The position numbers and the translations under genes were made by a program. The notes beneath the pieces were generated by a model, which was not told the DNA's origin, did no database searches, and worked only from the letters and a program-made list of their open reading frames with translations. Positions 4,852 through 31,261 of a stretch of DNA of 40,804 nt are shown here, in pieces. Every line of letters starts with the position of its first letter. Within the stretch, counting starts at the first letter, position 1. The stretch is from a virus, in UHGV virus genome UHGV-0164601, one strand, 5' to 3'.

Positions 4852-4853
4852 TA

Positions 4854-11628: not shown

Positions 11629-11677
11629 CATGTCACGAGTAGATTATGCATGATGAATTTGATGGATTTTGAATACT

Positions 11678-11703
11678 GCCGCCAACTATGGCGGCTTTAT
11701 TTT
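11678..11703 (+). terminator. Rho-independent terminator between the nin-like operon and the terminase operon
   Basis: GCCGCC-AACTAT-GGCGGC hairpin followed by TTTATTTT. Confidence 0.6.
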
Positions 11704-11714
11704 GCATGGTACTA

Positions 11715-11729
11715 TTACCACAACGGTAA
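11715..11729. promoter_or_regulatory. Operator-like palindrome TTACC-ACAAC-GGTAA upstream of the small terminase gene
   Basis: Perfect copy; a variant TTACC-ACGGT-GGTTA follows at 11733-11747 overlapping the terS ribosome-binding site. Confidence 0.5.
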
Positions 11730-11746
11730 CAATTACCACGGTGGTT

Positions 11747-12343
11747 ATGATGCCTGCTGAACCTAAAACCTATAAACGCAAATCAACGCAATTTAAGCCG
11801 CTCACAGCAATGCAGGAGGCTTATTGCCAGTCATACATCAAAACGCCTGAAAACCAGACTCAGGCTGCGATTAACGCAGGATTCTCCCCAAATACAGCGG
11901 CAGTTAAAGCCAGTGTCATGATGCGCGATGAACGCATTCAGAAACGGATTGCCGAGTTGATGGAGGAGCGCAACAAACGAATGCGTGTCAGTGCTGATTA
12001 CGTTCTCATGCGCCTGGTGGAGATCGACCAGATGGACGTGATCGACATCCTCAACGACGATGGGAGCCTTAAACCAATCCGTGAGTGGCCGAAAATCTGG
12101 CGCACTACGCTTAGTGGCTTTGATCTGTCATCGACCATCATGAACATGAACGAGGATTCAATAGAGACAATCCTCAAAAAAATTAAATGGCCTGACAAGG
12201 TGAAGAACCTTGAGCTGATTGGTAAGCATGTTGATGTCAACGCATTCAAAGAACGTCTGGATGTTAATGTGAATGTGACAATTGCTGATCGCATAGCAGC
12301 AGCCAGGAAGCGACTCAAAGAACGTCAGGATGGTAATCAGTGA
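11747..12343 (+). CDS. Terminase small subunit (Terminase_2-like)
   Basis: YCQSYIKTP...TQAAINAGFSPNTAAVKASVMMRDERIQKRIAEL matches the small-terminase HTH pattern; start at ATG 11747 (GGTGG upstream); upstream TTG-initiated extension rejected. Confidence 0.7.
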   Translation: MMPAEPKTYKRKSTQFKPLTAMQEAYCQSYIKTPENQTQAAINAGFSPNTAAVKASVMMRDERIQKRIAELMEERNKRMRVSADYVLMRLVEIDQMDVIDILNDDGSLKPIREWPKIWRTTLSGFDLSSTIMNMNEDSIETILKKIKWPDKVKNLELIGKHVDVNAFKERLDVNVNVTIADRIAAARKRLKERQDGNQ

Positions 12344-14360: not shown

Positions 14361-14437
14361 GAACTGGAAGCAATGAGTTATGCCTTCCGTGGCTGTACTG
14401 GTTTACAGCATGAAGTCATCGCAATGGCGTCCTGCTG

Positions 14438-14480: not shown

Positions 14481-14523
14481 AAGCCCCTGGAACTTCTGGC
14501 ATCACGGTCCTTAGGCGTGATTC

Positions 14524-14922: not shown

Positions 14923-14937
14923 TTACCTGAAAGGTAA
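14923..14937. promoter_or_regulatory. Operator-like palindrome TTACC-TGAAA-GGTAA upstream of the portal operon
   Basis: Perfect copy; 44 bp upstream of ATGTGGTT (14982-14989). Confidence 0.5.
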
Positions 14938-15027
14938 TAATTCGCGCGTTAAATGTCAACTATCTACGATAAATAAATCATATGTGGTTAAATTGGTAAT
15001 AATTTAATTGCGTACGGAGTCATTGAT

Positions 15028-15234
15028 ATGTGCATGGGTAGCTCACCATCAGTGCCTGCAACACCAGAAGTTCAGGCAGCACCACAGGAGCAGGATGCTG
15101 CCGTTGTTGATGCCCGCGACGAAGAAACACGTCGCCGTCGCGCTGCTGCTGGTCGTAGTTCTACGCTGCTTACCGGTTCTCAGGGCGACACATCAACCGC
15201 TAATACCAGCGGTAAAACGCTGCTTGGTCAGTAA
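15028..15234 (+). CDS. Hypothetical small protein (68 aa), first gene of the head operon
   Basis: GGAG 8 nt before ATG 15028; the same 12-mer CGGAGTCATTGA precedes the portal start; Ala/Gln/Ser/Thr-rich. Confidence 0.4.
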   Translation: MCMGSSPSVPATPEVQAAPQEQDAAVVDARDEETRRRRAAAGRSSTLLTGSQGDTSTANTSGKTLLGQ

Positions 15235-15248
15235 CCGGAGTCATTGAA

Positions 15249-16928
15249 ATGGCGGAAACAACTAAAGAGCGATTGAACAAACAGTTCGCACAACTTGAAA
15301 GCGAGCGTCAGTCGTTCGAGCCGCACTGGCGCGAGTTGAGTGATTACATCAACCCGCGTGGTTCCCGCTTTCTGACTTCTGAGGCCAACCGTAACGATCG
15401 GCGCAATACACGCATTATTGATTCGACCGGGACTATGGCGGCGCGCACTCTCGCCAGCGGCATGATGTCAGGCATCACAAGCCCCGCGCGTCCGTGGTTT
15501 CGCCTGGCTACGCCAGATCCTGAAATGATGGATTATGGCCCTGTTAAGTTGTGGCTTGAGGCAGTTCAGAACCGCATGAACGATATGTTCAATAAGTCGA
15601 ATCTCTACCAGTCTCTTCCGCAGTTATACGGAAGCCTCGGCACATACAGCACTGGTGCAATGGCAGTGCTGGAGGATGACGAGGACATCATTCGCACAAT
15701 GCCATTCCCGATAGGCAGTTACTACCTGGCTAACTCACCTCGTGGCAGTGTTGACACCTGTTTTCGCAAGTTCTCTATGACTGTTCGTCAGCTTGTTCAG
15801 GAGTTCGGGCTAAATAACGTCAGCGAATCCGTAAAAAGCATGTGGGAAAGCGGCACCTACGAGAAGTGGATCGAAGTGATGCATTCGGTTTACCCGAACA
15901 TTGACCGCGATACATCGAAGCTGGATAGCAAGAACAAGCCATTCAAATCGGTTTATTACGAGGTTGGTGGAGATAACGACAAGTTGTTGCGTGAGTCCGG
16001 ATTCGATGAGTTTCCAATTATGGCTCCGCGCTGGGAAGTTAACGGCGAAGATGTTTATGGATCATCATGCCCGGGTATGCTGGCGCTTGGACCTGTTAAG
16101 GCATTGCAGCTTCTCCAGAAGCGCAAGTCGCAGTTGATTGATAAAGCCACCAATCCGCCGATGGTTGCTCCGACTTCCCTCAAGAATCAGCGCGCCTCCC
16201 TTCTTCCTGGCGACATCACGTATATCGATCAGATTACTGGTCAGGATGGCTTCAGGCCTGCTTATCTGGTTAACCCCAGTACAGCAGATTTGGTGGCAGA
16301 CATTCAGGACACTCGTCAAATCATTAACAGCGCCTACTTTGTCGATCTGTTCATGATGTTGCAGAACATCAATACCCGCTCGATGCCTGTTGAAGCGGTG
16401 ATCGAAATGAAAGAAGAAAAACTTCTGATGTTGGGGCCGGTTCTGGAGCGTCTGAACGACGAATGTCTTAATCCTCTCATTGACCGCGCTTTCTCGATGA
16501 TGGTGCGCAAAAACATGCTGCCGCCACCGCCTGACGCGATGGAAGGCATGCCCCTGAAGGTCGAATACATTTCCGTCATGGCTCAGGCGCAGAAGTCTAT
16601 CGGCCTGTCCAGTCTGGCGTCCACGGTTAACTTCATTGGTCAACTTGCGCAAGCGAAACCAGAAGCTCTCGACAAACTCAACGTTGATCAGGCGATCGAT
16701 GCATTCGCTGATATGTCCGGAGTGTCTCCAACCGTCATTGTTCCGCAGGAACAGGTTGAGCAGGCTCGCCAGCAACGGGCACAGCAACAACAGCAGCAAC
16801 AAATGATGGCGATGGGGATGGCGGCGGCACAGGGGGCCAAGACGCTAAGCGAAGCTAAAACTTCGGATCCGAGTGTGTTGTCAGCTATGGCGAATGCAGT
16901 TAGTGGTCAGGGTGGGCAATCACAATGA
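15249..16928 (+). CDS. Portal (head-to-tail connector) protein, T7 gp8-like
   Basis: 559 aa; located between terminase and scaffold/capsid; Gln/Ala/Met-rich C-terminal tail (QQRAQQQQQQQMMAMGMAAAQGA) as in T7-type portals. Confidence 0.75.
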   Translation: MAETTKERLNKQFAQLESERQSFEPHWRELSDYINPRGSRFLTSEANRNDRRNTRIIDSTGTMAARTLASGMMSGITSPARPWFRLATPDPEMMDYGPVKLWLEAVQNRMNDMFNKSNLYQSLPQLYGSLGTYSTGAMAVLEDDEDIIRTMPFPIGSYYLANSPRGSVDTCFRKFSMTVRQLVQEFGLNNVSESVKSMWESGTYEKWIEVMHSVYPNIDRDTSKLDSKNKPFKSVYYEVGGDNDKLLRESGFDEFPIMAPRWEVNGEDVYGSSCPGMLALGPVKALQLLQKRKSQLIDKATNPPMVAPTSLKNQRASLLPGDITYIDQITGQDGFRPAYLVNPSTADLVADIQDTRQIINSAYFVDLFMMLQNINTRSMPVEAVIEMKEEKLLMLGPVLERLNDECLNPLIDRAFSMMVRKNMLPPPPDAMEGMPLKVEYISVMAQAQKSIGLSSLASTVNFIGQLAQAKPEALDKLNVDQAIDAFADMSGVSPTVIVPQEQVEQARQQRAQQQQQQQMMAMGMAAAQGAKTLSEAKTSDPSVLSAMANAVSGQGGQSQ

Positions 16929-17221
16929 CAGATTACGAAGACGATCAACTGAAAGAAGAAAACGCCCGTAAGCAACGTGACATGGCACAGCGTGAAATTG
17001 ATGACATTCGCTTTGTCATGAGCAGTGAACAGGGGCGTCGCGTTGTCTGGTCGGTGCTGGAGAAAGGCCGGGTGTTTTCCGCTATCTCTCCGATGGATGC
17101 TATGGCAATGGCATTTAATGAGGGGCAACGCAATCTGGCGCTGGAACTGTTTCAGCGCGTTATGGCGCATTGCCCTGAACAGTATTTGAAGATGGCCAAA
17201 GAGGCCAGTGAACAGGAGTGA
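16925..17221 (+). CDS. Hypothetical head-assembly protein (98 aa)
   Basis: ATGA-coupled to the portal stop; acidic protein. Confidence 0.5.
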   Translation: MTDYEDDQLKEENARKQRDMAQREIDDIRFVMSSEQGRRVVWSVLEKGRVFSAISPMDAMAMAFNEGQRNLALELFQRVMAHCPEQYLKMAKEASEQE

Positions 17222-17223
17222 TC

Positions 17224-17919
17224 ATGAGTTTATTTGAGCGTTTGCTGTATCGCCGTCTTTGCAATGAGCAACAAGTCGATGGTGGGGCAGCTCCGGCTGC
17301 GTCAGAACCGTCAGCGCATGCAGATGATAACCCTGCTCCAGTTGGTGATCCATCACAACAGGAAGGTGATAAGCCACAACCTGTTTCTGATGGCGATAAA
17401 CCTGCTGATGACAAAAAGCCTGAAAACGATAAGCAGGATGAAAAAAAGGGCGGCGATAAACCAGAGGGTGCGCCTGAGAAGTACGAGTTTCAGGCTGCCG
17501 AAGGCGTAGAGCTGGATACAGAAGCGTTGAAGGAATTCGAGCCGGTGGCGCGAGAACTAAACCTGACCAACGAGCAAGCGCAAAAGCTGGTTGATGCTTA
17601 TCCGAAGATTCTGGCAGGTGTTCAGCAGCGCCAGGCAGAAGCCTGGCAGAAAACAACCGAGCAGTGGGCTGCGGATGTAAAAGCTGACAAAGAAATCGGT
17701 GGCGACAAGTTGATTTCTAACCTTAGCGCCGCACAGCGTGCGCTTGACCAGTTCGGGACACCTGAACTCAAAGAATATCTGAACACCACCGGACTGGGTA
17801 ATCACCCTGACCTGGTCAAAACGTTCGTGAAAATCGGAAAGGCGATGTCTGAAGATGGCATGGTCACCGGTGGTAATGAAGGCCAGCGTAGTGCGGCCGA
17901 AGTGCTCTATGGCAAATAA
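17224..17919 (+). CDS. Scaffolding protein (putative)
   Basis: Highly acidic, Lys/Glu/Asp/Pro-rich low-complexity N-terminal half, located immediately upstream of the major capsid gene; start at ATG 17224 (AGGAG upstream). Confidence 0.6.
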   Translation: MSLFERLLYRRLCNEQQVDGGAAPAASEPSAHADDNPAPVGDPSQQEGDKPQPVSDGDKPADDKKPENDKQDEKKGGDKPEGAPEKYEFQAAEGVELDTEALKEFEPVARELNLTNEQAQKLVDAYPKILAGVQQRQAEAWQKTTEQWAADVKADKEIGGDKLISNLSAAQRALDQFGTPELKEYLNTTGLGNHPDLVKTFVKIGKAMSEDGMVTGGNEGQRSAAEVLYGK

Positions 17920-17933
17920 GAGAGGAAATGACA

Positions 17934-18920
17934 ATGGCTGTTAAAGGCTTAACTGCGCTAACGCTGGCTGACTGGGGTAAGCGCGTCGATCCAAACGGGA
18001 AAGTCGATAAGATTATCGAGCTTCTCGGTCAAACTAACCCGATCCTTCAGGATATGCCTTTTGTCGAAGGGAACCTTCCTACCGGACACCGAACCACCAT
18101 TCGTTCTGGTTTACCTTCAGCTACCTGGCGTTTGCTGAACTATGGCGTACAGCCAAGCAAATCAACCACAGTGCAGGTAACCGATTCCGTTGGCATGCTG
18201 GAAACCTATGCTGAAGTCGATAAGTCACTGGCTGATCTGAACGGCAATACCGCCGAATTCCGCCTGTCTGAAGACCGCGCATTTATTGAAGCGATGAATC
18301 AGCAGATGGCGCAGACGCTGTTTTATGGTGATTCCAGCGTTAACCCTCAGCAGTTTATGGGACTGTCCTCCCGCTATTCCAGCCTGTCTGCAGGTAATGC
18401 TCAGAACATCATTGATGCTGGTGGCACGGGCACAGATAACACCTCAATCTGGTTAGTGGTGTGGGGCGAAAACACCGTGCATGGCATCTTCCCGAAAGGG
18501 CAGAAGGCTGGCATTCAGATGGAAGATAAAGGCCAGGTGACACTGGAAGATGCTAATGGCGGCAAGTACGAAGGCTACCGTACCCATTACAAATGGGACA
18601 ACGGACTTGCTCTGCGTGACTGGCGTTATGTTGTTCGCATTGCAAACATCGATGTCAGCAATCTTTCAGAACCTTCCTCTGCCGCAAATATTGCGAAGTT
18701 GATGGTTAAAGCACTGCATCGCATTCCAAACCGTGGCATGGGTCGCCCGGTGTTCTACATGAACCGCACTGTAGGCCAGGCTCTTGATCTGCAGTCTCTG
18801 GAGAAAACATCTCTGGCGATTAGCGTAAAAGAGACTGAAGGCGAGTGGTGGACGTCATTCCGTGGTGTACCAATCCGTGAAACTGATGCGCTTCTGGAAA
18901 CAGAAGCCCGCGTGGTGTAA
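17934..18920 (+). CDS. Major capsid protein (putative)
   Basis: About 36-kDa protein directly after the scaffold gene in a T7-like gene order; start at ATG 17934 (GAGGA 7 nt upstream). Confidence 0.6.
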   Translation: MAVKGLTALTLADWGKRVDPNGKVDKIIELLGQTNPILQDMPFVEGNLPTGHRTTIRSGLPSATWRLLNYGVQPSKSTTVQVTDSVGMLETYAEVDKSLADLNGNTAEFRLSEDRAFIEAMNQQMAQTLFYGDSSVNPQQFMGLSSRYSSLSAGNAQNIIDAGGTGTDNTSIWLVVWGENTVHGIFPKGQKAGIQMEDKGQVTLEDANGGKYEGYRTHYKWDNGLALRDWRYVVRIANIDVSNLSEPSSAANIAKLMVKALHRIPNRGMGRPVFYMNRTVGQALDLQSLEKTSLAISVKETEGEWWTSFRGVPIRETDALLETEARVV

Positions 18921-18971
18921 CGCCTGTTATTAACCTGTGGGTCGTAACAGACCCACTAATGGAGAAAGAAG

Positions 18972-19409
18972 ATGATCACCGACAAACTGTTGATGTTCTC
19001 CGAAGCTCAGGCGGTTACGAATACCGCGGCTTCTACTGACGTAATCGATCTCGGTCCAATTGATGGAAACCGTCGCGATATCGGTGTGGGTTACCCGCTT
19101 GAGTTTTGGGTGCTGGTTAACGAAGCCGCCACGGCAAGTGGTGAGGCAACTGTAAACATCCAGTTGCAGACGAGTGAGAATAACAGCTCTTGGACCACTA
19201 TTTATGATAGTGGTGCGTTGGCAAAGGCCACCCTGACAGCAGGTAAGCGAGTTGTTTCTGCAAAGGTGCCAGCCGGTGTTCAGCGATATCTGCGTGTTAA
19301 CTACTCCGTCGCAACTGGCCCACTAACGGCCGGCAAATTCACTGCGGGTATCAGTCTGGATGTTGATGCCAATACGCCGTACCCGATCCGCTCAAAAGTA
19401 ACTGGTTAA
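18972..19409 (+). CDS. Hypothetical virion protein (145 aa; possible capsid decoration/accessory)
   Basis: Position directly after the capsid gene; Thr/Ala/Val-rich. Confidence 0.45.
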   Translation: MITDKLLMFSEAQAVTNTAASTDVIDLGPIDGNRRDIGVGYPLEFWVLVNEAATASGEATVNIQLQTSENNSSWTTIYDSGALAKATLTAGKRVVSAKVPAGVQRYLRVNYSVATGPLTAGKFTAGISLDVDANTPYPIRSKVTG

Positions 19410-19419
19410 GGTGATATCG

Positions 19420-19755
19420 ATGTCAGGTGAGAAACCAAGATACCGCGTTCTGCGCCTCTCTCATATCCATAACACACTGTGGCCGGAGGGGGCAGAAATC
19501 GAATACGAAGGTGAGCCTGGTAGCGCACTGGAACCTGTTAACGATGCAGCCAGACAGGCAAAAGCAAAGGTAGCAGGAAAGGTGTCTATGGCAGCAACCA
19601 GCACCAAAATCATCAACGATGTGTCAGATGATGGTGAACTGGATAAGCTCCGTGAAGAGTACGAATTGCTCTTTAACGAGAAGCCACACCATAACGCTAA
19701 AGCCGAAACGCTCCGAGAGAAGATCGCAGATAAGCGTAAAGAACTGGGCGTGTAA
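19420..19755 (+). CDS. Hypothetical protein (111 aa)
   Basis: AAGGTGA before ATG 19420; followed by a strong terminator. Confidence 0.45.
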   Translation: MSGEKPRYRVLRLSHIHNTLWPEGAEIEYEGEPGSALEPVNDAARQAKAKVAGKVSMAATSTKIINDVSDDGELDKLREEYELLFNEKPHHNAKAETLREKIADKRKELGV

Positions 19756-19771
19756 GCCTCGCGAATCCGAC

Positions 19772-19793
19772 AAGGGGCTTCGGCCCCTTTATT
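19772..19793 (+). terminator. Rho-independent terminator after the capsid gene block
   Basis: AAGGGGC-TTCG-GCCCCTT hairpin followed by TATT; the next gene's AGGAG Shine-Dalgarno begins 2 nt later. Confidence 0.6.
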
Positions 19794-19805
19794 GCAGGAG
19801 TGTAT

Positions 19806-20129
19806 ATGGAACTCGTAAACCTCAAAACCGGCACTGACAGCTACCAGGATGAGAGCGGAGAAACCAGAACTCGCGATGAATACCCGTGGGAGCTGTGCAT
19901 CACTCTTAATAACGACACATTGAATAAGCTGAAGGCGCAACCTCAGGGCGTCGGAACAGAAGTGATGATAACTGCAAAGGCTGTTATTCGAGGCCTGTCT
20001 GCCAGAGAAACTGACGATGGTGTTAATCGCAGCGCCGATCTGCAGATCACTGATATGGCGATCGCTCCTGTTTCCAGGGATGTAGAAAAATCAGCGGCTG
20101 AAACTCTGTACGGTAACGGAGGTGAGTGA
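19806..20129 (+). CDS. Hypothetical virion/assembly protein (107 aa)
   Basis: AGGAG 6 nt before ATG 19806. Confidence 0.5.
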   Translation: MELVNLKTGTDSYQDESGETRTRDEYPWELCITLNNDTLNKLKAQPQGVGTEVMITAKAVIRGLSARETDDGVNRSADLQITDMAIAPVSRDVEKSAAETLYGNGGE

Positions 20130-20734
20130 TGGCCTCTGTAGTAGAGATCTGTAATCGTGCGCTGTCCAATATTGGCAACAGCCGCAGTATTAACAGCCTG
20201 ACGGAAGCCAGCAAGGAAGCGGGGGAATGTTCGCTGCACTTTGAGGCCTGCCGTGATGCTGTTCTTTCTGATTTTGACTGGAACTTTGCTACCAAACGCG
20301 TGGCGCTTGCAGATACGAGCAATCCACCGCCTGACTGGGAATATGCGTACCAGTACCCGTCCGATTGTCTGCGCATTACTGAAATTATGCTTCCTGGTGT
20401 ACGCAATCCAACAGCAGCAATGCGCGTTCAGTACGAAGTTGGTGCAGACACCAACGGAACAGGAAAGTTGATCTACACAGACCAGCCGCAGGCATGGCTC
20501 AAGTATGTCTCTCGCGTTTCAGATGTGAACATGTTTGATGCCATTTTTATGGAGGCGTTGGCCTGGCGTCTTGCGGCAGCTATTAACATGGCGCTCACTG
20601 GGAATGCAGACCTCGGTACGTTTGCCCTCAATATGTACAATCGCGTGATTCTTAGTGCTGGCTCGCATAGCCAGAATGAATCACAGGAACCACAGCCACC
20701 GGTTGACGAGTTTACCATTGCGAGGTTGTCCTGA
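20129..20734 (+). CDS. Tail tubular protein A-like (T7 gp11 analogue), putative
   Basis: About 200 aa, precedes a large tail-tube B-like gene; GGAGGTGA before ATG 20129. Confidence 0.5.
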   Translation: MASVVEICNRALSNIGNSRSINSLTEASKEAGECSLHFEACRDAVLSDFDWNFATKRVALADTSNPPPDWEYAYQYPSDCLRITEIMLPGVRNPTAAMRVQYEVGADTNGTGKLIYTDQPQAWLKYVSRVSDVNMFDAIFMEALAWRLAAAINMALTGNADLGTFALNMYNRVILSAGSHSQNESQEPQPPVDEFTIARLS

Positions 20735-23199
20735 TGGCTATCAGTTGGATCCAGCCCAGCTTTGCCGGTGGTGAGATTGGACCGTCGTTGTACGGTCGTA
20801 TCGACATGGCGAAGTACCAGGTGGCATTGCGCAAGTGCGATAACTTTATCGTGCGGCAGTATGGCGGCGTTGAGAATCGACCTGGTACGCGTTTTGTCGG
20901 TGCCGCCAAATACCCAAATCGGAAATGCCGCCTGATCCCGTTCCAGTTCTCGACGGTTCAGACTTATGCTCTGGAGTTCGGACACCAGTACATGCGCGTT
21001 ATCAAAGATGGTGCGTTGGTGCTGAACAGCAGCAATGTTATTTATGAAATTGCCACGCCATATACTGAAGCCGATCTGTTCCGAATTAAATTCACGCAAA
21101 GCGCAGACGTGCTTACGCTGGTTCATCCGGCATACCCGCCGAAAGAGTTGCGCCGCTATGCGCATGACAACTGGCAACTGGTTGATGTGGTAACGAAGAA
21201 CGGGCCATTTGAAGATATCAATATTGACGAGTCAGTGACGGTTTATGCCAGCGCCAGCACCGGGACAATTACGTTAACGGCAAGCGCCTCAATTTTTGGC
21301 GCGGAGCAGGTAGGCAAATTGTTCTATCTGGAACAGCCTGCAGTGGATTCTGTGCCGGTATGGGAAACCAGTAAGAGTACGTCGATTGGCGATATTCGCC
21401 GTGCAGACAGTAACTACTATCGCGCCGTTACAGCAGGCAAAACAGGCACTTTGCGCCCTTCGCATACAGAAGGCACATCATGGGATGGCTGGGGCGGATC
21501 CGGTGATGATGATACCGGCATTGAGTGGGAGTATCTGCACAGTGGTTTTGGCATTGCCCGTATCTCTGCTGCAAATGGAACTACTGCAACTGCCGAGGTG
21601 ATTTCCTATATCCCTTCGCAGGTAGTTGGCGAGGATAATGCCAGCTATAAATGGGCTAAATATGCCTGGAACAGTATTAACGGTTATCCTGGCACTGTTG
21701 TTTATTATCAACAACGCCTTTACTTCGCCGCATCGACTGCGTTCCCTCAGACTATCTGGGCCAGCCGTACCGGGGATTATAAGGATTTTGGCAAAAGCAA
21801 TCCTACGCAGGATGACGACAGAATTATCTACACCTATGCCGGGCGTCAGGTTAATGAGATCCGTCACCTGATTGATGTTGGTTCGCTGGTGGCGCTGACT
21901 TCCGGAGGTGAGTACGTCATCACTGGCGACCAGAACAAAGTGCTTACCCCATCATCATTTGCATTCAGCTCTCAGGGATCAAATGGCTCGAGCAATGTCC
22001 CACCAATTGCCGTGGCGAATATTGCTCTGTTCGTCCAGGAGAAAGGCAGTGTTGTCCGTGATCTGGCCTACTCATTCGATGTTGACGGCTATCAGGGGAA
22101 CGACCTGACCATCCTTGCCAATCATCTTTTTCAGAAGCACAGCATTGTTGACTGGTGCTTCTCGATTGTCCCTTACTCCAGCGCCTTCTGCATTCGTGAT
22201 GACGGTAAATTACTGGTGATGACCTATTTGCGTGATCAGCAGGTTTTTGCATGGGCACCACAATCCAGTACCGGAAAATATGAAAGCACATGCAGTATCA
22301 GCGAAGGCAATGAAGATGCGGTGTATTTCGTCGTTAACCGAACCGTTAACGGGCAAACAGTGAGATACATAGAGCGACTGTCCAGCCGTTTATTTACCAG
22401 CGATGAAGATGCTTTCTTTGTTGATTCTGGCCTTAGCTATGATGGAAGAAATACGTCTGACAGAACGATGACCATCACTGGTGGTTCTGGTGAATGGGAT
22501 TACCGTGCGGAATATACAATCAGTGTTTCTGGTGGTGCGTACTTCACCAGTAGTGATGTCGGCGCGCAACTACAGTTCCCTTATACCGGAACTGATCCTG
22601 ATACTGAAGTGTCAAAAGAATTACGTTGCGACATTATTTCTGTAACCAGCAATACCGCTGTAGTGGTTCGTGCTAACAGGAACGTCCCGCCATCCCTCAG
22701 GAATGTGGCCACCACGAACTGGCAGATGGCGCGCCGGACATTTGGAGGCCTGTCTCATCTTGAAGGCCAGACCGTAAACATTCTCTCTGATGCGAACGTG
22801 GAACCACAGAAAGTGGTTTCCGGAGGTGCCGTCACGCTGGAATCACCTGGGGCTGTAGTGCACATCGGCCTGCCAATAACTGCTGAATTCGAAACACTGG
22901 ATATCAACATTAACGGACAGGAAACGCTGCTGGACAAAAAACAGGTGATCCCGTCCGTTACTCTGGTTGTGAATGCCAGTCGTGGCATCTGGGCGACTAC
23001 GCCCGGCGGTAAATGGTACGAATATCCACAGCGTGAATTCGAGTTCTACGATGATCCTGTTGATGACGCTACCGGAAAAGTAGAAGTGAAACTGGACAGT
23101 AACTGGGGCAAAAACGGACGTGTAAGAATCCGTCAGCTTGACCCGTTGCCGCTGTCTGTTCTTGCCGTTATTCCTCGTCTTACTGTTGGGGGATTCTGA
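20734..23199 (+). CDS. Tail tubular protein B-like (T7 gp12 analogue), putative
   Basis: 821-aa protein following the gp11-like gene with 1-nt stop/start overlap; Gly/Ser/Thr-rich beta-rich composition. Confidence 0.5.
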   Translation: MAISWIQPSFAGGEIGPSLYGRIDMAKYQVALRKCDNFIVRQYGGVENRPGTRFVGAAKYPNRKCRLIPFQFSTVQTYALEFGHQYMRVIKDGALVLNSSNVIYEIATPYTEADLFRIKFTQSADVLTLVHPAYPPKELRRYAHDNWQLVDVVTKNGPFEDINIDESVTVYASASTGTITLTASASIFGAEQVGKLFYLEQPAVDSVPVWETSKSTSIGDIRRADSNYYRAVTAGKTGTLRPSHTEGTSWDGWGGSGDDDTGIEWEYLHSGFGIARISAANGTTATAEVISYIPSQVVGEDNASYKWAKYAWNSINGYPGTVVYYQQRLYFAASTAFPQTIWASRTGDYKDFGKSNPTQDDDRIIYTYAGRQVNEIRHLIDVGSLVALTSGGEYVITGDQNKVLTPSSFAFSSQGSNGSSNVPPIAVANIALFVQEKGSVVRDLAYSFDVDGYQGNDLTILANHLFQKHSIVDWCFSIVPYSSAFCIRDDGKLLVMTYLRDQQVFAWAPQSSTGKYESTCSISEGNEDAVYFVVNRTVNGQTVRYIERLSSRLFTSDEDAFFVDSGLSYDGRNTSDRTMTITGGSGEWDYRAEYTISVSGGAYFTSSDVGAQLQFPYTGTDPDTEVSKELRCDIISVTSNTAVVVRANRNVPPSLRNVATTNWQMARRTFGGLSHLEGQTVNILSDANVEPQKVVSGGAVTLESPGAVVHIGLPITAEFETLDININGQETLLDKKQVIPSVTLVVNASRGIWATTPGGKWYEYPQREFEFYDDPVDDATGKVEVKLDSNWGKNGRVRIRQLDPLPLSVLAVIPRLTVGGF

Positions 23200-23663
23200 T
23201 GATCGATGTTCGAATTATTCCCGCCACCGAAGAGCATCTTCAGATGATTTTGCCGGATGTTCGTCAGGCTGATATTGACGAACTGTATGCGGTATCGCTG
23301 ATGACTACCGAAGATGCGCTGCGTGTTGGTCTTCGCACTGCGACTATGGCCTGGTCAGGGTTCGCGAACGGAGAACTGGTAACCATGTTTGGTGTATCTC
23401 CGGCGTCAATGATCGGTGGCAATGGTACACCCTGGCTGGTCGGAACCAGCCGTATTGAAAAATATCAGAAGACATTTCTTCGCCACTGCCGACCTGTATT
23501 GCAGCAGATGCTGGCAGTTTATCCGCGCCTGGAAAACTACGTCGACGAGCGAAACCATGTTGCCAAAGCATGGCTGCACTGGCTTGGATTCAGGCTTGAA
23601 GAAGCCGCGCCTTATGGTGCTCTTGGTCTTAATTTCCACAGATTTCACATGGAGAGAAAATAA
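23199..23663 (+). CDS. Hypothetical virion protein (154 aa)
   Basis: ATGA-coupled between the tail-tube B-like and internal core genes. Confidence 0.45.
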   Translation: MIDVRIIPATEEHLQMILPDVRQADIDELYAVSLMTTEDALRVGLRTATMAWSGFANGELVTMFGVSPASMIGGNGTPWLVGTSRIEKYQKTFLRHCRPVLQQMLAVYPRLENYVDERNHVAKAWLHWLGFRLEEAAPYGALGLNFHRFHMERK

Positions 23664-24241
23664 TGTGTAACCCAGCCATCGCTTTGGTTGCCGTCACAGT
23701 GGCATCCACAGCAGCGTCAATGTACAGCCAGAGCAAGCAGGCAAAATACCAGTCAGCCGTAGCTGATCGGAATGCTGAAATTGCTGAAGCTCAGGCACAG
23801 GATTCAATCAATCGTGGGAATATTGAAGCGGATCAGCGTCGTCGTGAAATGCGTCAACGCTCAGGCACTGCGGCGGCCACTATGGGGGCTACCGGTGCGG
23901 AATTAAGTAGCGGAACAGCTCTTGACGTTTTTGCGGATAATGCTCAGTTCGGCACTCTTGATGCGTTAACGACAGTGAATAATGCTCAGCGTGAGGCATA
24001 TGGGTATCAGGTTCAGGGAATGAATGCTCAGGCACAGGGGGCTGCTGCTCAGTCGGCTGCTAAATCATCGATGACCAGCACTTTGTTAACGGCACCACTA
24101 AAAGCATACGGTGCGTACCAGATGTTTGGTGGGACGTGGAGTCCGTTCTCTAAAGGAAGTACATCTAGTGGTGGGACGCCAATGTTATCTAACTCAGGTT
24201 TTATGAATTCTGACTCCAGATTCAAAATAGGAGGTTACTGA
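23663..24241 (+). CDS. Internal virion protein A-like (T7 gp14 analogue)
   Basis: 192 aa beginning MCNPAIALVAVTVASTAAS with an Ala/Gln-rich body, like the N-terminus of T7 gp14; first of three consecutive core genes. Confidence 0.6.
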   Translation: MCNPAIALVAVTVASTAASMYSQSKQAKYQSAVADRNAEIAEAQAQDSINRGNIEADQRRREMRQRSGTAAATMGATGAELSSGTALDVFADNAQFGTLDALTTVNNAQREAYGYQVQGMNAQAQGAAAQSAAKSSMTSTLLTAPLKAYGAYQMFGGTWSPFSKGSTSSGGTPMLSNSGFMNSDSRFKIGGY

Positions 24242-26988
24242 TGCCTGTTGTTCCTACTACATCCGGACGCCAGGTGCAAAGTCGTGGTGTGCAAACCGGT
24301 GGTTTTCAGACCTTCGATGTTCCTCAAGCAGGTCAGGTGCTGGCGAATGTCGCAGATCAGTATGCGGTGGCATATGGTGAAGCTAGGCAGAAAGCGAATG
24401 TTGCTATGGCCCAGGAGGCGTTACTGCAATTTAACCAATTTGCAGATGACCAGATTAACAACCCTGAAAATGGGCTGATTTCTAAACAGGGTAAAAACGC
24501 TCTTGGTCAGAGTGACGCTGTTATGAAAAATATGCAGGAAAGGGCTCAGGCATTATTAGGCTCAATTCCTGAAAGTGAGGAAAGGAATAAATTATCCTTT
24601 CAACTCCAGCAGTCTATGCAGTCTTATTACAATCAGGCACGTCGATATGAAGTTGGGCAGTTTCAGCAATTCCAAGATCAAACGTATTTGTCAGGAAATG
24701 CATTGGCTGTCACTCAGTCTGCGGGGCTATATAGCGATAACCAAGCATTTGTCGATTTAGCCAAGCAGCGATTTGAATCTATTGATCAATACGCTGATGC
24801 GCATGGGCTTCCTGATGAGTGGCGTGTTCAGCAGAAAACTCAGCTCAAGGAACAAATGGGGCAGCAAGCATGGATAGGAAATATCGCTCAAAAATACAAC
24901 GAGTTTCTTCAGGTTAATGGAGAGCCAGGGGATCTTGATGGTGTGAGTCGTGCAATATCACATGGTAATTCATTGGATGCTCGTGGTTTACGTAATAATA
25001 ACCCTGGCAATATTGAAGCGAGCAAATCTAACCCGTGGGAAGGTCAGATCGGTAGCGATGGACGTTTTGCAACGTTTGCTACCCCTGAGCATGGAATCCG
25101 CGCGTTGGGTAAAAATATGTTGTCTTACCAGCGTCAAGGCTATGACACCGTTAGCGAGATTGTTAATCGCTATGCTCCGGCTAGTGATGGTAATAATACT
25201 GATGCTTATATTAGGGCATTGTGTAGTGAGCTTGGTGTTGGGGAGAATGATCAGCTTGATATCTCTAACCCAAAGACACTAGCTGCTTTATGTGCTGGGA
25301 TTATTAAACACGAAAATGGCAGTATGCCTTATAGCACCGAACAGCTTGAAACTGGTATCTCGGCAGCCCTTGGTCTAACTAACCTTGATTCACCTAAGCG
25401 TTATACGGGCAATGCGGCATTTGACGCTATGAGCCCTCAAATGCAAATACAGGCATTGAGGCAGGCTAATGAGCTGAGAAATCAGTACCGCCAGCAGTAT
25501 GCGGACCAGCTTAGCACCGTAGTTAAAGATGCATATTCAGCCCTTGATGAAGGATTGAAACCTGAGAAGTTACCTTCTGAGGACGATTTTATCCGGGCCA
25601 ATGGTCCGCGCATTGGCGCTATGAAGTGGAAGGATATGCAGGCGCAGATACAATATGGAGGTGTCATTGGTGCCGCTAAAGACCTCACTCCAGAAGGACG
25701 ACAAGACATTCTTGAACGTTTACGTCCACAGGATCCAAACGCTCTTGGATTTGCAGCTAACCAGCAACGCTGGGAGAAAATGCAGGCCAAATTTAAAGAG
25801 ATGGATAGGGAGTGGGAGATTCAGCAGGGAAGAAACAGGTTCGTGTCTTCAATGCAAAATAACTTCCCGCTGGACCCTAACGACAAAAACAATCAGGCAG
25901 CGGTAGACCGTTATTTCGCGCAGGATATCGCGCCTTCGTTTTCCATATCTGATCCGCAGAGCATCAATACACTGGTCACCGTCACAACTAAAAGCGGCAT
26001 GATACCAACTCAGGTTAAAACAATGCTTAACAGTGGAGCAACATCAAGAGATCCTGCGCTGGTTGTCCCGATGGCAAAATTCTACGGTCAGTTATTCGAT
26101 AATAATCCGGCGGCAGCGGCAACACTTGATAAAAGTACGATGGCATTTTACGGCAAGGTTTACGATTATTCCCGCGCTGGCGTGCCGGAGGATAAGGCTG
26201 TTGATATGGCTTACAGCCAGGTGTTCCAACAGGATGACCGAATGAAACAGATGCTTTCCACTGCCATGCGAGACAAAAAATATGTCGCGGCGAGGGCAAC
26301 TGCTGCACAAAATAACGCCAGCAGTCTGACTTCCTTTGGTTCGTGGTCTCCGGATATTACCGATCCAGGAAAATCAAATGCGGCCTATCAGCGAGATTAC
26401 CAGACAATTTACGATGCTAACTTTGTACAGACAGGTGGCGATGCAGAACAGGCTGAGAAAATGACCAATGCCATGATCAGAACCACCTGGGGAGTTTCTA
26501 CAGTTAATGGCAAAGCAGAGGTTATGAAGTATGCACCTGAGGCATTGTACGGAGTAAATAATGGTGCTGGTAACTGGATACAGGGGCAGTGGGAGCAGGA
26601 AAAACGCGAGCTTAAATCAAAATCCTTTGGCGGTCCTCGCAGTGATACGGACTTAATACTTGTTTCTGATGGCCTTACGGCAAGGGATAGGAGTTATGCT
26701 GTTATGGTTTTACAGCCTGACGCAAACGGAGCGATAGAACCGAGAAATTATATTGGAGAAAATGGTCTCCCTGTTCGTTTCAAGCCGGATCAGCTGACAT
26801 CTCCAATGTACAGGCAAACCATTCAGTTCCAGCAACAGCGTGTTGATGAGGCTAGAGTGCGGAGAGAAGGCAATCCGCTGCCGCAGTTCAGCAATAAAGA
26901 TGGATATACTCCTCCAGATCTGACCAAACCATTCGGTTATGGTTCAGCCAATTACCTTCCGAGCAATATATACGCAGGGGGCAAATAA
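24241..26988 (+). CDS. Internal virion (core/ejection) protein B-like, 915 aa
   Basis: Second large core gene, translationally coupled; contains a conserved-looking central module NNPGNIEASKSNPWEGQIGSDGRFATFATPEHGIRALGKNML of unknown function. Confidence 0.5.
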   Translation: MPVVPTTSGRQVQSRGVQTGGFQTFDVPQAGQVLANVADQYAVAYGEARQKANVAMAQEALLQFNQFADDQINNPENGLISKQGKNALGQSDAVMKNMQERAQALLGSIPESEERNKLSFQLQQSMQSYYNQARRYEVGQFQQFQDQTYLSGNALAVTQSAGLYSDNQAFVDLAKQRFESIDQYADAHGLPDEWRVQQKTQLKEQMGQQAWIGNIAQKYNEFLQVNGEPGDLDGVSRAISHGNSLDARGLRNNNPGNIEASKSNPWEGQIGSDGRFATFATPEHGIRALGKNMLSYQRQGYDTVSEIVNRYAPASDGNNTDAYIRALCSELGVGENDQLDISNPKTLAALCAGIIKHENGSMPYSTEQLETGISAALGLTNLDSPKRYTGNAAFDAMSPQMQIQALRQANELRNQYRQQYADQLSTVVKDAYSALDEGLKPEKLPSEDDFIRANGPRIGAMKWKDMQAQIQYGGVIGAAKDLTPEGRQDILERLRPQDPNALGFAANQQRWEKMQAKFKEMDREWEIQQGRNRFVSSMQNNFPLDPNDKNNQAAVDRYFAQDIAPSFSISDPQSINTLVTVTTKSGMIPTQVKTMLNSGATSRDPALVVPMAKFYGQLFDNNPAAAATLDKSTMAFYGKVYDYSRAGVPEDKAVDMAYSQVFQQDDRMKQMLSTAMRDKKYVAARATAAQNNASSLTSFGSWSPDITDPGKSNAAYQRDYQTIYDANFVQTGGDAEQAEKMTNAMIRTTWGVSTVNGKAEVMKYAPEALYGVNNGAGNWIQGQWEQEKRELKSKSFGGPRSDTDLILVSDGLTARDRSYAVMVLQPDANGAIEPRNYIGENGLPVRFKPDQLTSPMYRQTIQFQQQRVDEARVRREGNPLPQFSNKDGYTPPDLTKPFGYGSANYLPSNIYAGGK

Positions 26989-29900: not shown

Positions 29901-30377
29901 GCACAGCATAACAGGGTGCTGGTATCTGGTATCCAGCAGGGCGATGCTGCATTCTATCTTGGTGCGCTTGGCACGATTGCGCTTGGCTCAATGGTCTATA
30001 TGATGAAACAGAAGTTAAGCGGTCGCGATATCGACTACAGCTGGAATAACCTTGTGAAAGAGGGGATCGACCGGGGCGGAATGCTTGGCTGGCTCTCTGA
30101 GCCGCTGAATACCGTTGAGAACATAAGCGGCGGTAGGTTTGGTCTTGGCGCGATGTTTGGTGCGCCTCCGGTATCAAGGTTTCAGAGTCGTAATGCTATT
30201 GGTGCTTTACTTGGTCCTACCTTTGATCTTGGCGGTGATGCCGCGACGGTTGCAAATGGTGTACTTAACGGAGAATTTGACAGCCAGCAAACCCACGCTG
30301 TCCGTAAAATGCTACCTTTTCAGAATCTGTGGGCGATATCACCATTACTAAATAAAGTTGAAGAGCAGATGAAATAG
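26988..30377 (+). CDS. Internal virion (core/ejection) protein D-like, 1129 aa
   Basis: Largest ORF of the structural module, immediately after the 915-aa core gene, as T7 gp16 follows gp15. Confidence 0.5.
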   Translation: MPIYEQDPKELLGEDIQQIAAPDDSNFYMETPSLLSAVNPFTSDQRVQRSRQAAFRIDNTLGSFIASAPFSQFDRVEGYNPFDNDAADIKGYEDFADSFINSGSHEETMAIKHRIDKQRTDREYLSEMGGAGTISSLAMGMIDPVNVAAMFIPVGAVARGGSIAETAGRFALANAAGGGVSEAALQATQEARSPMESVSNVVVDALVGGILGAGAQLLAGPSAREAVVNSVGNHLRGMDSPQSIGAAQVFNTTLDQEQLAGLGLANKTLSVTPAGRLAQSPSLVSRQINQQLAENNYFFAKNDEGLATFTAVETKIKQYDAMLYKQMEATRDAYQQYSKSVSARGVKRMNFIDFNEAVGMAMRRGDQSDIPEVSQAAARIRPIFETTKARMQELGILPEDIDVVTAKSYLPRIYKFDKILSDRTEFRGRIANWIQGISAKGADKAGQRIEKINSLLKTAEESAPRADALASEIAEAEKWSGKKILLMEELDKRNKLISQETDTQARLTRIEKELAETSSEKLQARMMKESSDLKTRLDDIAQAKSELPVYQRHMELLDNPRKYRSELRRLQKRANSTTRLNASRERALKQMEPLSREEAEDAADEIVNKIIGAPSGLVPADIIPERLVGRAGFTKSRTLLIPDERIEDFLESDVNYIMESYLRQVAPEIELTAQFGRKDMGEQIRQVSEEYTRLIKEAKTPKRRAVLEKQREADIRDITAMRDRLLGTYGAPQDPRSFFVRAGRVARNINFLRLLGGMTVSAATDLMRPMMQHGLRKSLGPMVSMLKNMDSVKIATRDLREMAVGLDYVLSTRTKAIADLTDPYSRRSAAERGLNWMTQKFGNWTLMNQWNSALKSWSGMIVQSRILDAARQVSAGGTLSKSEMRKMAQVGINEDVLRRIGEQFGKHGEDMDGLLTGHSHLWDDRFAREIFQSAVLKDVDSVIVTPGVGDTPLFFSKEGWKMITQFKTFIFAQHNRVLVSGIQQGDAAFYLGALGTIALGSMVYMMKQKLSGRDIDYSWNNLVKEGIDRGGMLGWLSEPLNTVENISGGRFGLGAMFGAPPVSRFQSRNAIGALLGPTFDLGGDAATVANGVLNGEFDSQQTHAVRKMLPFQNLWAISPLLNKVEEQMK

Positions 30378-30378
30378 G

Positions 30379-31236: not shown

Positions 31237-31261
31237 AGGCCGCTTTCGCGGCCTTGTTTTT
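31237..31261 (+). terminator. Rho-independent terminator after the secreted-protein gene
   Basis: AGGCCGC-TTTC-GCGGCCT hairpin followed by TGTTTTT. Confidence 0.6.

Follow-up and report, generated by a model that had tools for sequence, protein, structure and literature searches.

Gene content of the structural block

Positions 15249 to 30377 were analyzed within a window comprising the 40,804-nucleotide virus genome UHGV-0164601. All ORFs named in the original prediction were found on the plus strand at their predicted coordinates. For the portal, the capsid protein and the gp14 family, the assignments are well above what chance would give. Five further genes, missing from that list, lie within the block and encode the Bbp19-like, Bbp16-like, 114-aa gp9-like, gp10 capsid staple and 154-aa gp13-like proteins. 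The features of the block and its surroundings are as follows.

1-1251: integrase, P4-type tyrosine integrase (Pfam match)
5160-5744, minus strand: HTH repressor (Pfam match)
6496-8093: DnaT-like and lambda-P-like replication proteins (Pfam matches)
11669..13815, plus strand: small (224 aa) and large (491 aa) terminase subunits, TerS and TerL, upstream of the portal gene
15028..15234, plus strand: 68-aa epsilon15 gp3-like small protein, directly upstream of the portal gene
15249..16928, plus strand: portal protein, T7 gp8-type, 559 aa (PF12236, E = 9.4e-188)
16925..17221, plus strand: Bbp19-like protein, 98 aa (PF25181, E = 2.8e-17; phrog_528)
17218..17919, plus strand: 233-aa scaffold candidate between the portal and capsid genes (by position and composition)
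17928..18920, plus strand: major capsid protein, 330 aa, epsilon15 gp7/BPP-1 type HK97 fold (PF20911 GP7, E = 2.1e-149)
18972..19409, plus strand: Bbp16-like capsid cement-type protein, 145 aa (PF21190, E = 5.6e-49)
19411..19755, plus strand: epsilon15 gp9-like protein, 114 aa (phrog_590, E = 3.9e-61)
19800..20129, plus strand: capsid staple protein, epsilon15 gp10 type, 109 aa (PF21628 Gp10-like, E = 1.2e-50)
20126..20734, plus strand: tail adaptor, 202 aa, tubular tail protein A position, T7 gp11 analogue
20734..23199, plus strand: tail nozzle, 821 aa, tubular tail protein B, T7 gp12 analogue
23199..23663, plus strand: internal virion protein (IVP) A, T7 gp13-like, 154 aa (phrog_308, E = 1.8e-62)
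23663..24241, plus strand: IVP-B, T7 gp14 family, 192 aa (PF24072, E = 9.4e-9)
24241..26988, plus strand: IVP-C candidate by T7 gp15 position and fold, 915 aa
26988..30377, plus strand: IVP-D, T7 gp16 homologue without the N-terminal SLT domain, 1129 aa
30379..31230, plus strand: 283-aa protein with a signal-peptide-like N-terminus, candidate accessory gene, last gene of the late operon
31237..31254, plus strand: terminator-like hairpin ending the late structural operon (7-bp stem with 6 GC pairs, then a T-run)
34336..37311, plus strand: tailspike, 991 aa, epsilon15/phiV10-type N-terminal virion-attachment region, different receptor-binding part

The block belongs to an epsilon15/phiV10-type prophage

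The best matches were the phages EC.W1-9, TL-2011b, phiV10, ZX5, PAS61 and epsilon15, so the earlier guess of an epsilon15-like temperate podophage was correct. Since all of these are short-tailed temperate phages of the Uetakevirus type, and the structural proteins likewise had their best matches there, the siphovirus or myovirus best hits named as evidence against the original prediction were not obtained. At both the nucleotide and the protein level, the structural operon is collinear with those of phiV10 and epsilon15; the gene order from terminase to IVP-B is shared, and the integrase, repressor and lysis genes are of the same type. Across 14327-24147, nucleotide identity is ~96-96.5% to phiV10 and, over most genes, 74-81% to epsilon15. 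For the portal, adaptor and nozzle proteins, identity is ~99% to phiV10 and 80-88% to epsilon15. Compared with 32.5 kb of phiV10 sequence, the modules at 8.6-11.6 kb, 24.2-32 kb and 34.8-37.6 kb had no match. The capsid genes are also of the epsilon15 type, with a GP7-family capsid protein and a gp10 staple protein. The predicted temperate context was upheld by the integrase, the HTH repressor, the DnaT-like and lambda-P-like proteins and the location of TerS/TerL upstream of the portal gene; together with an insertion next to guaA, this is a Uetakevirus-like backbone. The integrase arm is ~98-99% identical to phiV10 and EC.W1-9 (99.5% for the integrase-to-repressor arm of EC.W1-9).

The same block occurs in the chromosome of E. 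coli SCU-101 (98.7% identity over 100% of 15249-30377), with guaA and yfgI flanking the prophage, and in phage EC.W1-9 (PP445227; 96.7% identity across 98%). EC.W1-9, whose virions are short-tailed with a 60-nm head, is plaque-forming. EC.W1-9 and matching E. coli prophages (such as SCU-101 and strain 702/18) have the structural operon described here, including the 915-, 1129- and 283-aa genes, at 97-100% identity over 20129-31298; differences lie in several early genes and in the receptor-binding part of the tailspike. Approximately 119 of 5,426 complete E. coli genomes hold prophages 98-100% identical to the block; related structural genes occur in ~10% of complete genomes and the exact core cassette in ~2%. 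We conclude that the block is very probably the late operon for virion assembly in a Uetakevirus-like temperate podophage of the epsilon15/phiV10 type, which looks intact, resides as an E. coli prophage near guaA and has tail and injection proteins distantly related to those of T7. The phage type is common and already described; its injection-protein genes are present here in one of several exchangeable versions. The outcome is mainly a confirmed annotation of a widespread prophage type. EC.W1-9, a near-identical phage put forward for therapy, is temperate.

It is improbable that the block is instead a defective remnant whose structural genes no longer yield particles. The gp14-family gene of SCU-101 shifts frame after codon 164, which indicates that such prophages accumulate lesions. 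In the prophage studied here, however, all ORFs of the module are full length, identity to the plaque-forming EC.W1-9 is 97-99% from the adaptor gene to the operon end, and the module is accompanied by integrase, repressor, replication, terminase, tailspike and lysis genes.

Head and tail genes

The portal protein and T7 gp8 match PF12236 end to end (E = 2.8e-113 for T7 gp8). Furthermore, the portal matched PDB entry 8ck0_A ("Portal protein"; E = 2.3e-179), and it is 98.9% identical to its phiV10 and 80.5% identical to its epsilon15 counterpart. The capsid protein matched 3j4u_A of BPP-1 (E = 9.5e-129) and 3j40_A, epsilon15 gp7 (E = 2e-85), but not the T7 capsid family PF21703; it is 99.7% identical to the phiV10 protein and only 43% identical to that of epsilon15. 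PGAP labels a 94-98% identical homologue of the 145-aa protein "Bbp16 family capsid cement protein" and names the 109-aa protein "capsid staple protein". The 114-aa gp9-like protein is 99% identical to phiV10 gp12.

The 233-aa protein had been predicted to be a scaffold, and by position and composition it stays a candidate. Similarity to T7 gp9 was not detected (hhalign probability, 0.2%), and the database label is "protease" (phrog_458; E = 3e-109). This protein has no Pfam or NCBIfam domain and is 73% identical to epsilon15 gp6.

The adaptor matched phrog_394 "tail protein" (E = 8e-87), phrog_9239 "tail tubular protein" (E = 1e-17) and PDB entry 8ck1_E "Connector Protein" (E = 2.9e-26), and is 84% identical to epsilon15 gp11. 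The nozzle, 88% identical to epsilon15 gp12, matched phrog_376 and PDB entry 8ck1_A "Tail Nozzle" (E = 4.8e-218). Epsilon15 gp11 and gp12 are reported homologues of T7 gp11 and gp12: according to the RefSeq note, HHpred linked gp11 to 3j4b_A, tail tubular protein A of T7, and gp12 matches the T7 gp12 profile with E<1e-10 (PMC4819975). In our own comparisons, neither protein matched PF17212 (gp11-type) or PF25675 (gp12-type) in Pfam, and hhalign, including adaptor against T7 gp11, was negative with shallow three-sequence profiles.

Four internal virion proteins follow the nozzle gene

The original prediction had counted three internal core proteins (192, 915 and 1129 aa); we found four, the additional one being the 154-aa protein. 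This protein is 62% identical to epsilon15 gp13 and shares phrog_308 with T7 gp13 (E = 1.1e-42). The 192-aa protein scored 35.9 bits against PF24072 T7_gp14 (gathering cutoff, 27), and its PGAP name is "virion core protein, T7 gp14 family". In line with the suggested T7 gp14-like start, the protein begins MCNPAIALVAV and contains 18% Ala, compared to MCWAAAIPIA and 17% Ala in T7 gp14, and both have a hydrophobic N-terminal segment.

The 1129-aa protein matched phrog_342 (E = 2.7e-235) at profile positions 192-1227, and T7 gp16 matched the same profile at positions 4-1227. A profile of its family (150 members) aligned with T7 gp16 by hhalign with 98% probability (E = 1.7e-13; 425 columns), while controls remained below 1.5%. 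Its hydrophobic segments are collinear with those of T7 gp16, the two N-terminal ones being offset by ~+190 aa. The AF2 model of this protein was poor (pLDDT, 49.8).

For the 915-aa protein, the AF2 model (mean pLDDT, 80.5) suggests a gp15-like fold. The first three Foldseek PDB ranks were all T7 gp15 (7k5c_A, with E = 1.7e-4, then 6yt5_A and 7eyb_A; E = 1.7e-4 to 5e-3), with low global TM-scores of 0.14-0.20. Matches in BFVD included Autographiviridae IVP-C proteins, with E values down to ~1e-6. Profile comparison at the sequence level gave no significant match to T7 gp15 (probability, 1-4%). Over residues 1-516, the protein shares 44% identity with epsilon15 gp15, and a muralytic domain of the Enc34/PHA02564 type is inserted at about aa 247-399 (9vvp_L, E = 3.9e-35; 7q47_A, E = 2.8e-15; PMC8943055). 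If true, the Foldseek match would supply the IVP-C homologue that sequence methods left unconfirmed in this phage group. The current labels "DUF919 family protein" (1129 aa) and "hypothetical protein" (915 aa) can give way to annotations as internal virion (ejection) proteins, gp16-like for the former and gp15-like for the latter.

By analogy to T7 and epsilon15, the 192-, 915- and 1129-aa proteins are probably located inside the virion and ejected. It is very unlikely that the 915- and 1129-aa proteins are instead permanent outer parts of a tail hub or tail tube. Older epsilon15 genetics, that of Guichard 2013, reportedly assigned gp15 and gp17 to the tail tube or hub and not to the core. Early epsilon15 work left core versus hub undecided for these two proteins, and a later paper, citing Guichard 2013, still counts gp15 and gp17/16 in the "packaging/injection device" (PMC12391199). 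However, the adaptor and nozzle slots are already taken by the 202- and 821-aa proteins with their 8ck1 matches, and in T7 both gp16, the homologue of the 1129-aa protein, and gp15, which the 915-aa model resembles, belong to the internal core. Moreover, the epsilon15 core stack exits the capsid upon infection, forming a periplasm-spanning tube (PMC12391199; PMC8954989).

The core genes form a mosaic cassette

The epsilon15-like assignment holds for the phage as a whole but not for the 915/1129-aa pair, an alternative cassette starting at ~23.7 kb. The arrangement of epsilon15 and phiV10 comprises three large proteins, gp15, gp16 and gp17 in epsilon15, of about 840, 600 and 820-920 aa (837/600/824 aa in phiV10; 842/634/918 aa in epsilon15); here there are two. 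The phiV10 and epsilon15 proteins resemble the 915-aa protein only in its first ~500 aa (44-45%), and BLAST found no match for the 1129-aa protein in either phage. Its family profile matched phiV10 gp20 with 98% probability. A homologue of phiV10 gp19/epsilon15 gp16 is absent from this core.

TL-2011b also has a two-protein core, consisting of gp37 (905 aa; 29% identical to the 915-aa protein) and gp38 (1004 aa; 32-42% identical to the 1129-aa protein). It represents a different cassette allele, with nucleotide similarity stopping at 24437. At least five cassettes were found behind near-identical nozzle genes: the phiV10, epsilon15, TL-2011b and 915 + 1129 types and a further three-protein type. 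The nozzle genes upstream of alternative cassettes are mostly 99-100% identical, with a minority at 82-88%.

The gp14-like gene is itself mosaic. Only 57-70% identity to EC.W1-9 and phiV10 was detected at 23690-24090, and 96-100% identity to EC.W1-9 from 24092 onward. Its C-terminal ~50 codons appear to travel with the downstream cassette, which would suggest a coadapted gp14-gp15 interface. We consider it possible, if rather doubtful, that in epsilon15/phiV10-type prophages of E. coli the genes for ejection proteins act as a swappable cassette with which the gp14 end travels. Exchange of cassettes might result from selection imposed by the host envelope or by defenses sensing ejected proteins, and the polymorphic cassette offers a natural experiment on the coevolution of ejectosome parts. 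The T7-like layout of epsilon15-like phages has already been published (Hardies 2016), and the cassette is a modest addition to it.

The relationship to T7 is limited to portal, tail tube and core

The proposed T7-like head-tail layout held for the portal and most of the core, and probably for the tail tube and the gp15 position; the T7 relationship is limited to these parts and does not extend to the capsid protein, scaffold and terminase. As in T7, the order is portal ... adaptor, nozzle, IVP-A, IVP-B, IVP-C and IVP-D: a gp8-type portal gene is present, gp13 and gp14 homologues directly follow the nozzle gene, and there is a gp16 homologue. Homology to T7 was detected for portal, gp13, gp14 and gp16, and for gp15 it is suggested at the fold level. 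None of the proteins had direct BLAST-level similarity to T7 proteins, and none matched the Pfam families of the T7 capsid, scaffold, tube, nozzle and gp13 proteins.

Unlike in T7, the capsid protein and scaffold come from other families, no T7-type pair of capsid protein (PF21703) and scaffold (PF05396) being found, and there are extra capsid accessory genes. The terminase genes lie upstream of the portal gene, which is the lambdoid/P22 order. TerS matched PF03592 (E = 1.4e-29), no Pfam match was obtained for TerL at E<=0.001, and the two subunits are 98-99% identical to phiV10 gp1 and gp2. Furthermore, the gp16 homologue lacks the SLT domain, and a muralytic domain of another type, Enc34/PHA02564, is found in the gp15-position protein. 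In SP6, K1E and K1-5, muralytic activity is likewise on the gp15-position protein and not on gp16 (PMC8954989), a parallel that is architectural only. The phage also differs from T7 in being temperate with a lambdoid early region and in having no phage RNA polymerase. The Autographiviridae single-subunit enzyme is absent, the only ORFs of >560 aa being those for the nozzle, the two core proteins and the tailspike; the lytic lifestyle of that family does not apply, given the integrase and repressor.

A P22-like (Lederbergvirus) identity, to which a temperate enterobacterial podovirus with terminase-first order, tailspike and ejection proteins could point, as could the IVP-A and IVP-B homologues of P22, was refuted: the nucleotide and protein best matches are all epsilon15/phiV10-group phages with no P22-group record among the phage matches, the portal shares PF12236 with T7 gp8, and the capsid protein belongs to the epsilon15 GP7 family with a gp10 staple and has epsilon15-type PDB matches.

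Proposed assembly and ejection

As judged by homology to solved or characterized proteins, the block encodes a gp8-type dodecameric portal, an epsilon15/BPP-1-type HK97-fold capsid protein with gp10 "staple" and Bbp16-like accessory proteins, and a short tail consisting of the adaptor and nozzle. If T7 and epsilon15 are a guide, the 192-, 915- and 1129-aa proteins would be packaged inside the head as a core on the portal. Once the tailspike engages the O-antigen, they would exit via the nozzle and assemble a conduit across the envelope. In this conduit, the gp14-like protein may be placed at the outer membrane, the 915-aa protein may bridge the periplasm, its Enc34-type domain cutting peptidoglycan, and the 1129-aa protein may reach the inner membrane via its hydrophobic segments. 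The core genes are very probably a recombinational cassette, with a two-protein version from ~23.7 kb where phiV10/epsilon15 have three large proteins.

Genes flanking the block

The 68-aa protein upstream of the portal gene matched phrog_831 (E = 2.4e-36) and is identical (100%) to phiV10 gp6 and 88% identical to epsilon15 gp3. Its N-terminus is similar to that of T7 gp6.7 (MCMGSSPS/MCFSPKIK), with no significant hhalign result. Over its N-terminal 160-230 aa, the tailspike shares 70-76% identity with the tailspikes epsilon15 gp20 and phiV10 gp25, and a weak, subthreshold Peptidase_S74 chaperone match (22.0 bits at a cutoff of 22) was seen at its C-terminus. The 283-aa protein had phrog_6118 as its sole match, with none in Pfam, PADLOC or PDB, and its residues 4-22 are hydrophobic. 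Its gene lies in a low-GC stretch (GC, ~0.41), is present in 5 of 7 IMG/VR loci with the same cassette, and is followed directly 3' of its stop codon by the terminator-like hairpin.

Layout of the virion module and its relatives

The original prediction placed a T7-type virion core module at 15249-30377 in an integrase-bearing prophage, and this interval on the + strand was found to begin exactly at the start codon of the portal gene and to end with the stop codon of the ORF for the 1129-aa protein. The ORFs are uninterrupted on the + strand from 15028 to 31230, and the three core proteins indeed have the predicted sizes (192, 915 and 1129 aa). The expected surroundings, namely integrase, repressor, replication genes and a terminase before the portal gene, were also all present.

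Features surrounding the module
1-1251, integrase, upstream
5160-5744, - strand, HTH repressor, upstream
Upstream of the module, DnaT-like/HTH_36 initiator and lambda-P homolog
11669-13815, TerS and TerL, ahead of the module
14524-14600, - strand, tRNA-Arg (anticodon TCT), between the terminase and portal genes, together with a minus-strand ORF
30379-31230, 283-aa ORF after the 1129-aa gene, last gene of the late operon
31237-31254, strong terminator-like hairpin after the 283-aa ORF
Last ORFs of the window, yfgI and yfgH counterparts

Megablast revealed one phage, Escherichia phage EC.W1-9 (PP445227), which covers 98% of the 15.1-kb block at 96.7% identity. The first ~57% of the block was matched by ~20 phages of the epsilon15/phiV10 group, among them TL-2011b, HEMP4, PAS61, phiv142-3, ZX5, phiV10, O157 typing phages 9/10, Tyrion, PAT1 and epsilon15. 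Furthermore, the block was matched in 564 of 5,426 complete Escherichia coli genomes (full-length in 117). The prophage of E. coli SCU-101, located between guaA and yfgI, shares the gene order of the window and matches the block with 98.7% identity and 100% coverage. We conclude that the element is a common, already known temperate podophage type. The large terminase subunit (12340-13815) is 98% identical to phiV10 gp2 and had no Pfam-A match at E ≤ 0.001. SCU-101 and Klebsiella phage ST512-KPC3phi13.3 likewise carry the tRNA-Arg (TCT).

According to the EC.W1-9 preprint, this phage forms plaques, combines a head of 60 nm with a very short tail, and was placed in Uetakevirus by its authors; it is also said to lack an integrase and to be safe for therapy. 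The GenBank record (PP445227) annotates an integrase at 34301-35551, and the entire arm from integrase to repressor shares 99.5% identity with window positions 1-6316, which occur in prophage form in E. coli chromosomes.

Head and tail proteins and the extent of T7 likeness

Proteins encoded in the module, with length and supporting matches
Portal, 559 aa: PF12236, E = 9e-188; PDB 8ck0_A, E = 2e-179
Bbp19-like protein, 98 aa: Pfam and PHROG
Scaffold candidate, 233 aa: phrog_458; position between the portal and capsid genes
Capsid protein, 330 aa: PF20911; BPP-1 PDB 3j4u, E = 1e-128; epsilon15 gp7 3j40, E = 2e-85
Bbp16-like cement-type protein, 145 aa: Pfam
gp9-like protein, 114 aa: PHROG
gp10 capsid staple, 109 aa: PF21628
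Adaptor, 202 aa: PDB 8ck1_E "Connector Protein," E = 3e-26
Nozzle, 821 aa: PDB 8ck1_A "Tail Nozzle," E = 5e-218
Four internal virion proteins: 154, 192, 915 and 1129 aa

An NCBIfam search of ten proteins returned a family for none. The "protease" label of the 233-aa protein was inherited through databases (phrog_458); a protease domain was not recognizable in Pfam and NCBIfam, and hhalign found no similarity to T7 gp9. Based on its position, we infer that it is a scaffold candidate. The adaptor and nozzle were assigned because of the named chains of 8ck1, a RefSeq HHpred note on epsilon15 gp11, and the work of Hardies et al. 2016 (PMC4819975), in which the epsilon15 gp12 and T7 gp12 groups gave a strong HMM-HMM match (E<1e-10) and the two phages share a "transient tail homology group."

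No protein of the module gave a significant match when searched by BLAST against the genome and proteins of T7, and the T7 relationship therefore rests on profiles and folds. With shallow profiles of three to five sequences, hhalign against T7 gp8/9/10/11/12/13/14/15 yielded 21.6% probability for the portal, 15.6% for gp13 and <5% for the others. End-to-end matches to PF12236 were obtained for both T7 gp8 and the window portal, and PHROG 308 is common to the 154-aa protein and T7 gp13. Window proteins did not match the Pfam models of the T7 tube, nozzle and gp13 proteins. In contrast to the window capsid protein (PF20911), that of T7 belongs to PF21703; T7 has no counterpart to the scaffold candidate or the capsid accessory proteins, and its terminase differs in position and type. 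Thus, of a T7-like head-tail layout, the portal, gp13, gp14 and gp16 parts hold through shared families or profiles and the gp15 part probably does, but the capsid protein, scaffold and terminase do not fit. With these corrections the interpretation is supported, but it is already published: epsilon15 is listed among phages with gp14/15/16-type ejection proteins (Cingolani-group review, PMC8954989).

The 68-aa epsilon15 gp3-like protein encoded directly before the portal gene (15028-15234) begins with MCMGSSPS, and T7 gp6.7 begins with MCFSPKIK. T7 gp6.7 is a small ejected virion protein, and its gene is found a short distance before that of the T7 portal. The likeness is confined to the first ~10 residues (hhalign probability 0.8%, not significant), and the match was rejected.

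Internal virion proteins

The 192-aa protein exceeds the Pfam T7_gp14 gathering threshold and resembles T7 gp14 in its MC-plus-hydrophobic N terminus and Ala-rich composition; a PDB sequence search gave no match.

PHROG 342 is shared by T7 gp16 and the 1129-aa protein, the latter beginning at profile position 192, just beyond the SLT domain. Its family comprises 4,683 clusters at 50% identity, and a profile of the window protein plus 149 representatives was aligned with the single T7 gp16 sequence. This 150-member profile gave an hhalign probability of 98% (E = 1.7e-13; 425 columns; residues 653 to ~1110 versus gp16 795-1295) and was needed for this result, since a shallow 13-sequence alignment reached only 26%. 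The controls, six further proteins of T7 and four of epsilon15/phiV10, all scored 1.4% or less. Relative to T7 gp16, hydrophobic segments one and two lie ~190 residues closer to the N terminus, a shift equal in length to the absent SLT domain; the C-terminal segment lies ~145-200 residues closer. The AF2 model had a pLDDT of 49.8. BLAST matched the protein in neither phiV10 nor epsilon15, but the family profile matched phiV10 gp20 with 98% probability. A fusion origin, with the N-terminal half corresponding to the phiV10 middle protein gp19, was rejected (hhalign probability 0.4%). The PGAP name "DUF919 family protein" on 26988-30377 reflects a 46-residue coiled-coil match to a baculovirus family (23.4 bits; cutoff, 21), and precomputed PF08393 (dynein) matches on homologs look like the same type of artifact.

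The 915-aa protein occupies the gp15 position. Sequence profiles against T7 gp15 gave probabilities of 1-4%, which are not significant, and three separate attempts aligned one stretch (~580-810 versus gp15 450-660). The AF2 model was good (pLDDT 80.5), and Foldseek against 350,542 PDB chains ranked three independent T7 gp15 structures first to third (E = 1.7e-4, 1.9e-3 and 5.2e-3), the first being the only match with E ≤ 0.001. A BFVD search with the model returned Autographiviridae IVP-C proteins, the equivalents of T7 gp15, from JG068, RSB3, LKA1 ("lysozyme") and RPSC1 ("internal virion protein C"). Global TM-scores against T7 gp15 were low (0.14-0.20), as expected for long helical proteins, which are known to change conformation. 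Because of these scores, we consider the gp15-related fold of the model as probable.

[quoted passage not shown] Since the Gp28 chain of 9vvp is a close homolog of T7 gp15 (E = 3e-211), 9vvp is probably a T7-like core with Gp29 as its gp16-position protein. The 7q47 family, PHA02564, has a lysozyme-like fold and was proposed by its authors to be an N-acetylglucosaminidase (PMC8943055); the inherited label "lytic transglycosylase" may therefore be imprecise. A muralytic domain can shift from gp16 to gp15, for example in K1E and K1-5 (PMC8954989).

Polymorphism of the core cassette

Instead of the two large core proteins of the window (915 and 1129 aa, plus the 283-aa protein), phiV10 has three (837/600/824 aa), as does epsilon15 (842/634/918 aa). 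TL-2011b has the two-protein format, but its allele is divergent (29-42% amino acid identity). The likeness of the 915-aa protein to epsilon15 gp15 and phiV10 gp18 is confined to its first ~500 residues (44-45%). Apart from EC.W1-9 and the E. coli prophages, the 915/1129 genes have their closest relatives in Klebsiella prophage-like phages, with 81% nucleotide identity over 24411-30376.

Behind near-identical nozzle genes in IMG/VR loci, we found at least five alternative core gene sets. The survey covered 80 loci with a nozzle gene 82-100% identical to that of the window, and thus close relatives only.

Core gene sets behind the nozzle gene (approximate numbers of loci, n = 80)
phiV10-type: 35-40
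TL-2011b-type: 10
epsilon15-type: 8-9
Window-type: 7, 5 of them also with the 283-aa gene
Further three-protein type: 6

The further three-protein set, exemplified by locus L009 (12472-20350; ORFs of 181, up to 898, 565 and 850 aa), is unlike those of phiV10, epsilon15 and TL-2011b, with only ~24% identity to phiV10 gp20. The window-type cassette was detected in 119 of the 5,426 complete E. coli genomes, and strain 702/18 showed 100% identity across its 6.1 kb.

The gp14-like gene (23663-24241) is mosaic. The ~96-100% nucleotide identity to phiV10 extends to ~23,690, falls to 57-70% inside the gene and stops at 24,147. Similarly, positions 23690-24090 are just 57-70% identical to EC.W1-9, phiV10 and TL-2011b. 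In EC.W1-9, the gene combines a phiV10-like central part with window-type C-terminal ~50 codons and is followed by window-type genes. Because EC.W1-9 regains 96-100% identity from 24092, the final ~50 codons move together with the downstream 915/1129 cassette, which suggests that the gp14 C terminus may be coadapted to the gp15-position protein. In SCU-101, the homolog (annotated length, 168 aa) shifts its reading frame beyond codon 164. For a known element, the polymorphism of the cassette and the gp15 link at the level of fold are minor new findings.

Proposed role in DNA ejection

Cryo-EM and tomography revealed that the epsilon15 core exits the head and makes a periplasmic tube (PMC8954989, PMC12391199). 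Beyond the homologies demonstrated here, a mechanism can be proposed by analogy to T7 and epsilon15. Assembly would be nucleated by the portal on the scaffold, gp10 staples would stabilize the capsid, and the adaptor and nozzle would close the portal, on which the internal proteins would stack inside the head. Tailspike binding would trigger their ejection. The gp14-like protein would then localize to the outer membrane, the 915-aa protein would span the periplasm and cut murein locally, and the 1129-aa protein would enter the inner membrane through its hydrophobic segments, so that the three might jointly form the DNA conduit.

Accessory gene and tailspike region

The 283-aa gene lies in a low-GC stretch (~0.41) and encodes a protein with a signal-peptide-like N terminus. 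The protein matches PHROG 6118 (function unknown) alone, with no match in Pfam, PADLOC or a PDB sequence search; PADLOC on eight accessory ORFs revealed no defense system. In the Klebsiella relative, an unrelated 204-aa ORF takes its position. The gene looks like an accessory "moron" gene.

Between the tailspike and lysis genes (region including 37311-37709) there is no O-antigen-modifying gene, in contrast to phiV10 (oac) and epsilon15 (gp21/22). The tailspike (34336-37311) has a weak, subthreshold C-terminal match to the S74 chaperone. Its N-terminal 160-230 residues are 70-76% identical to epsilon15/phiV10, and the remainder differs.
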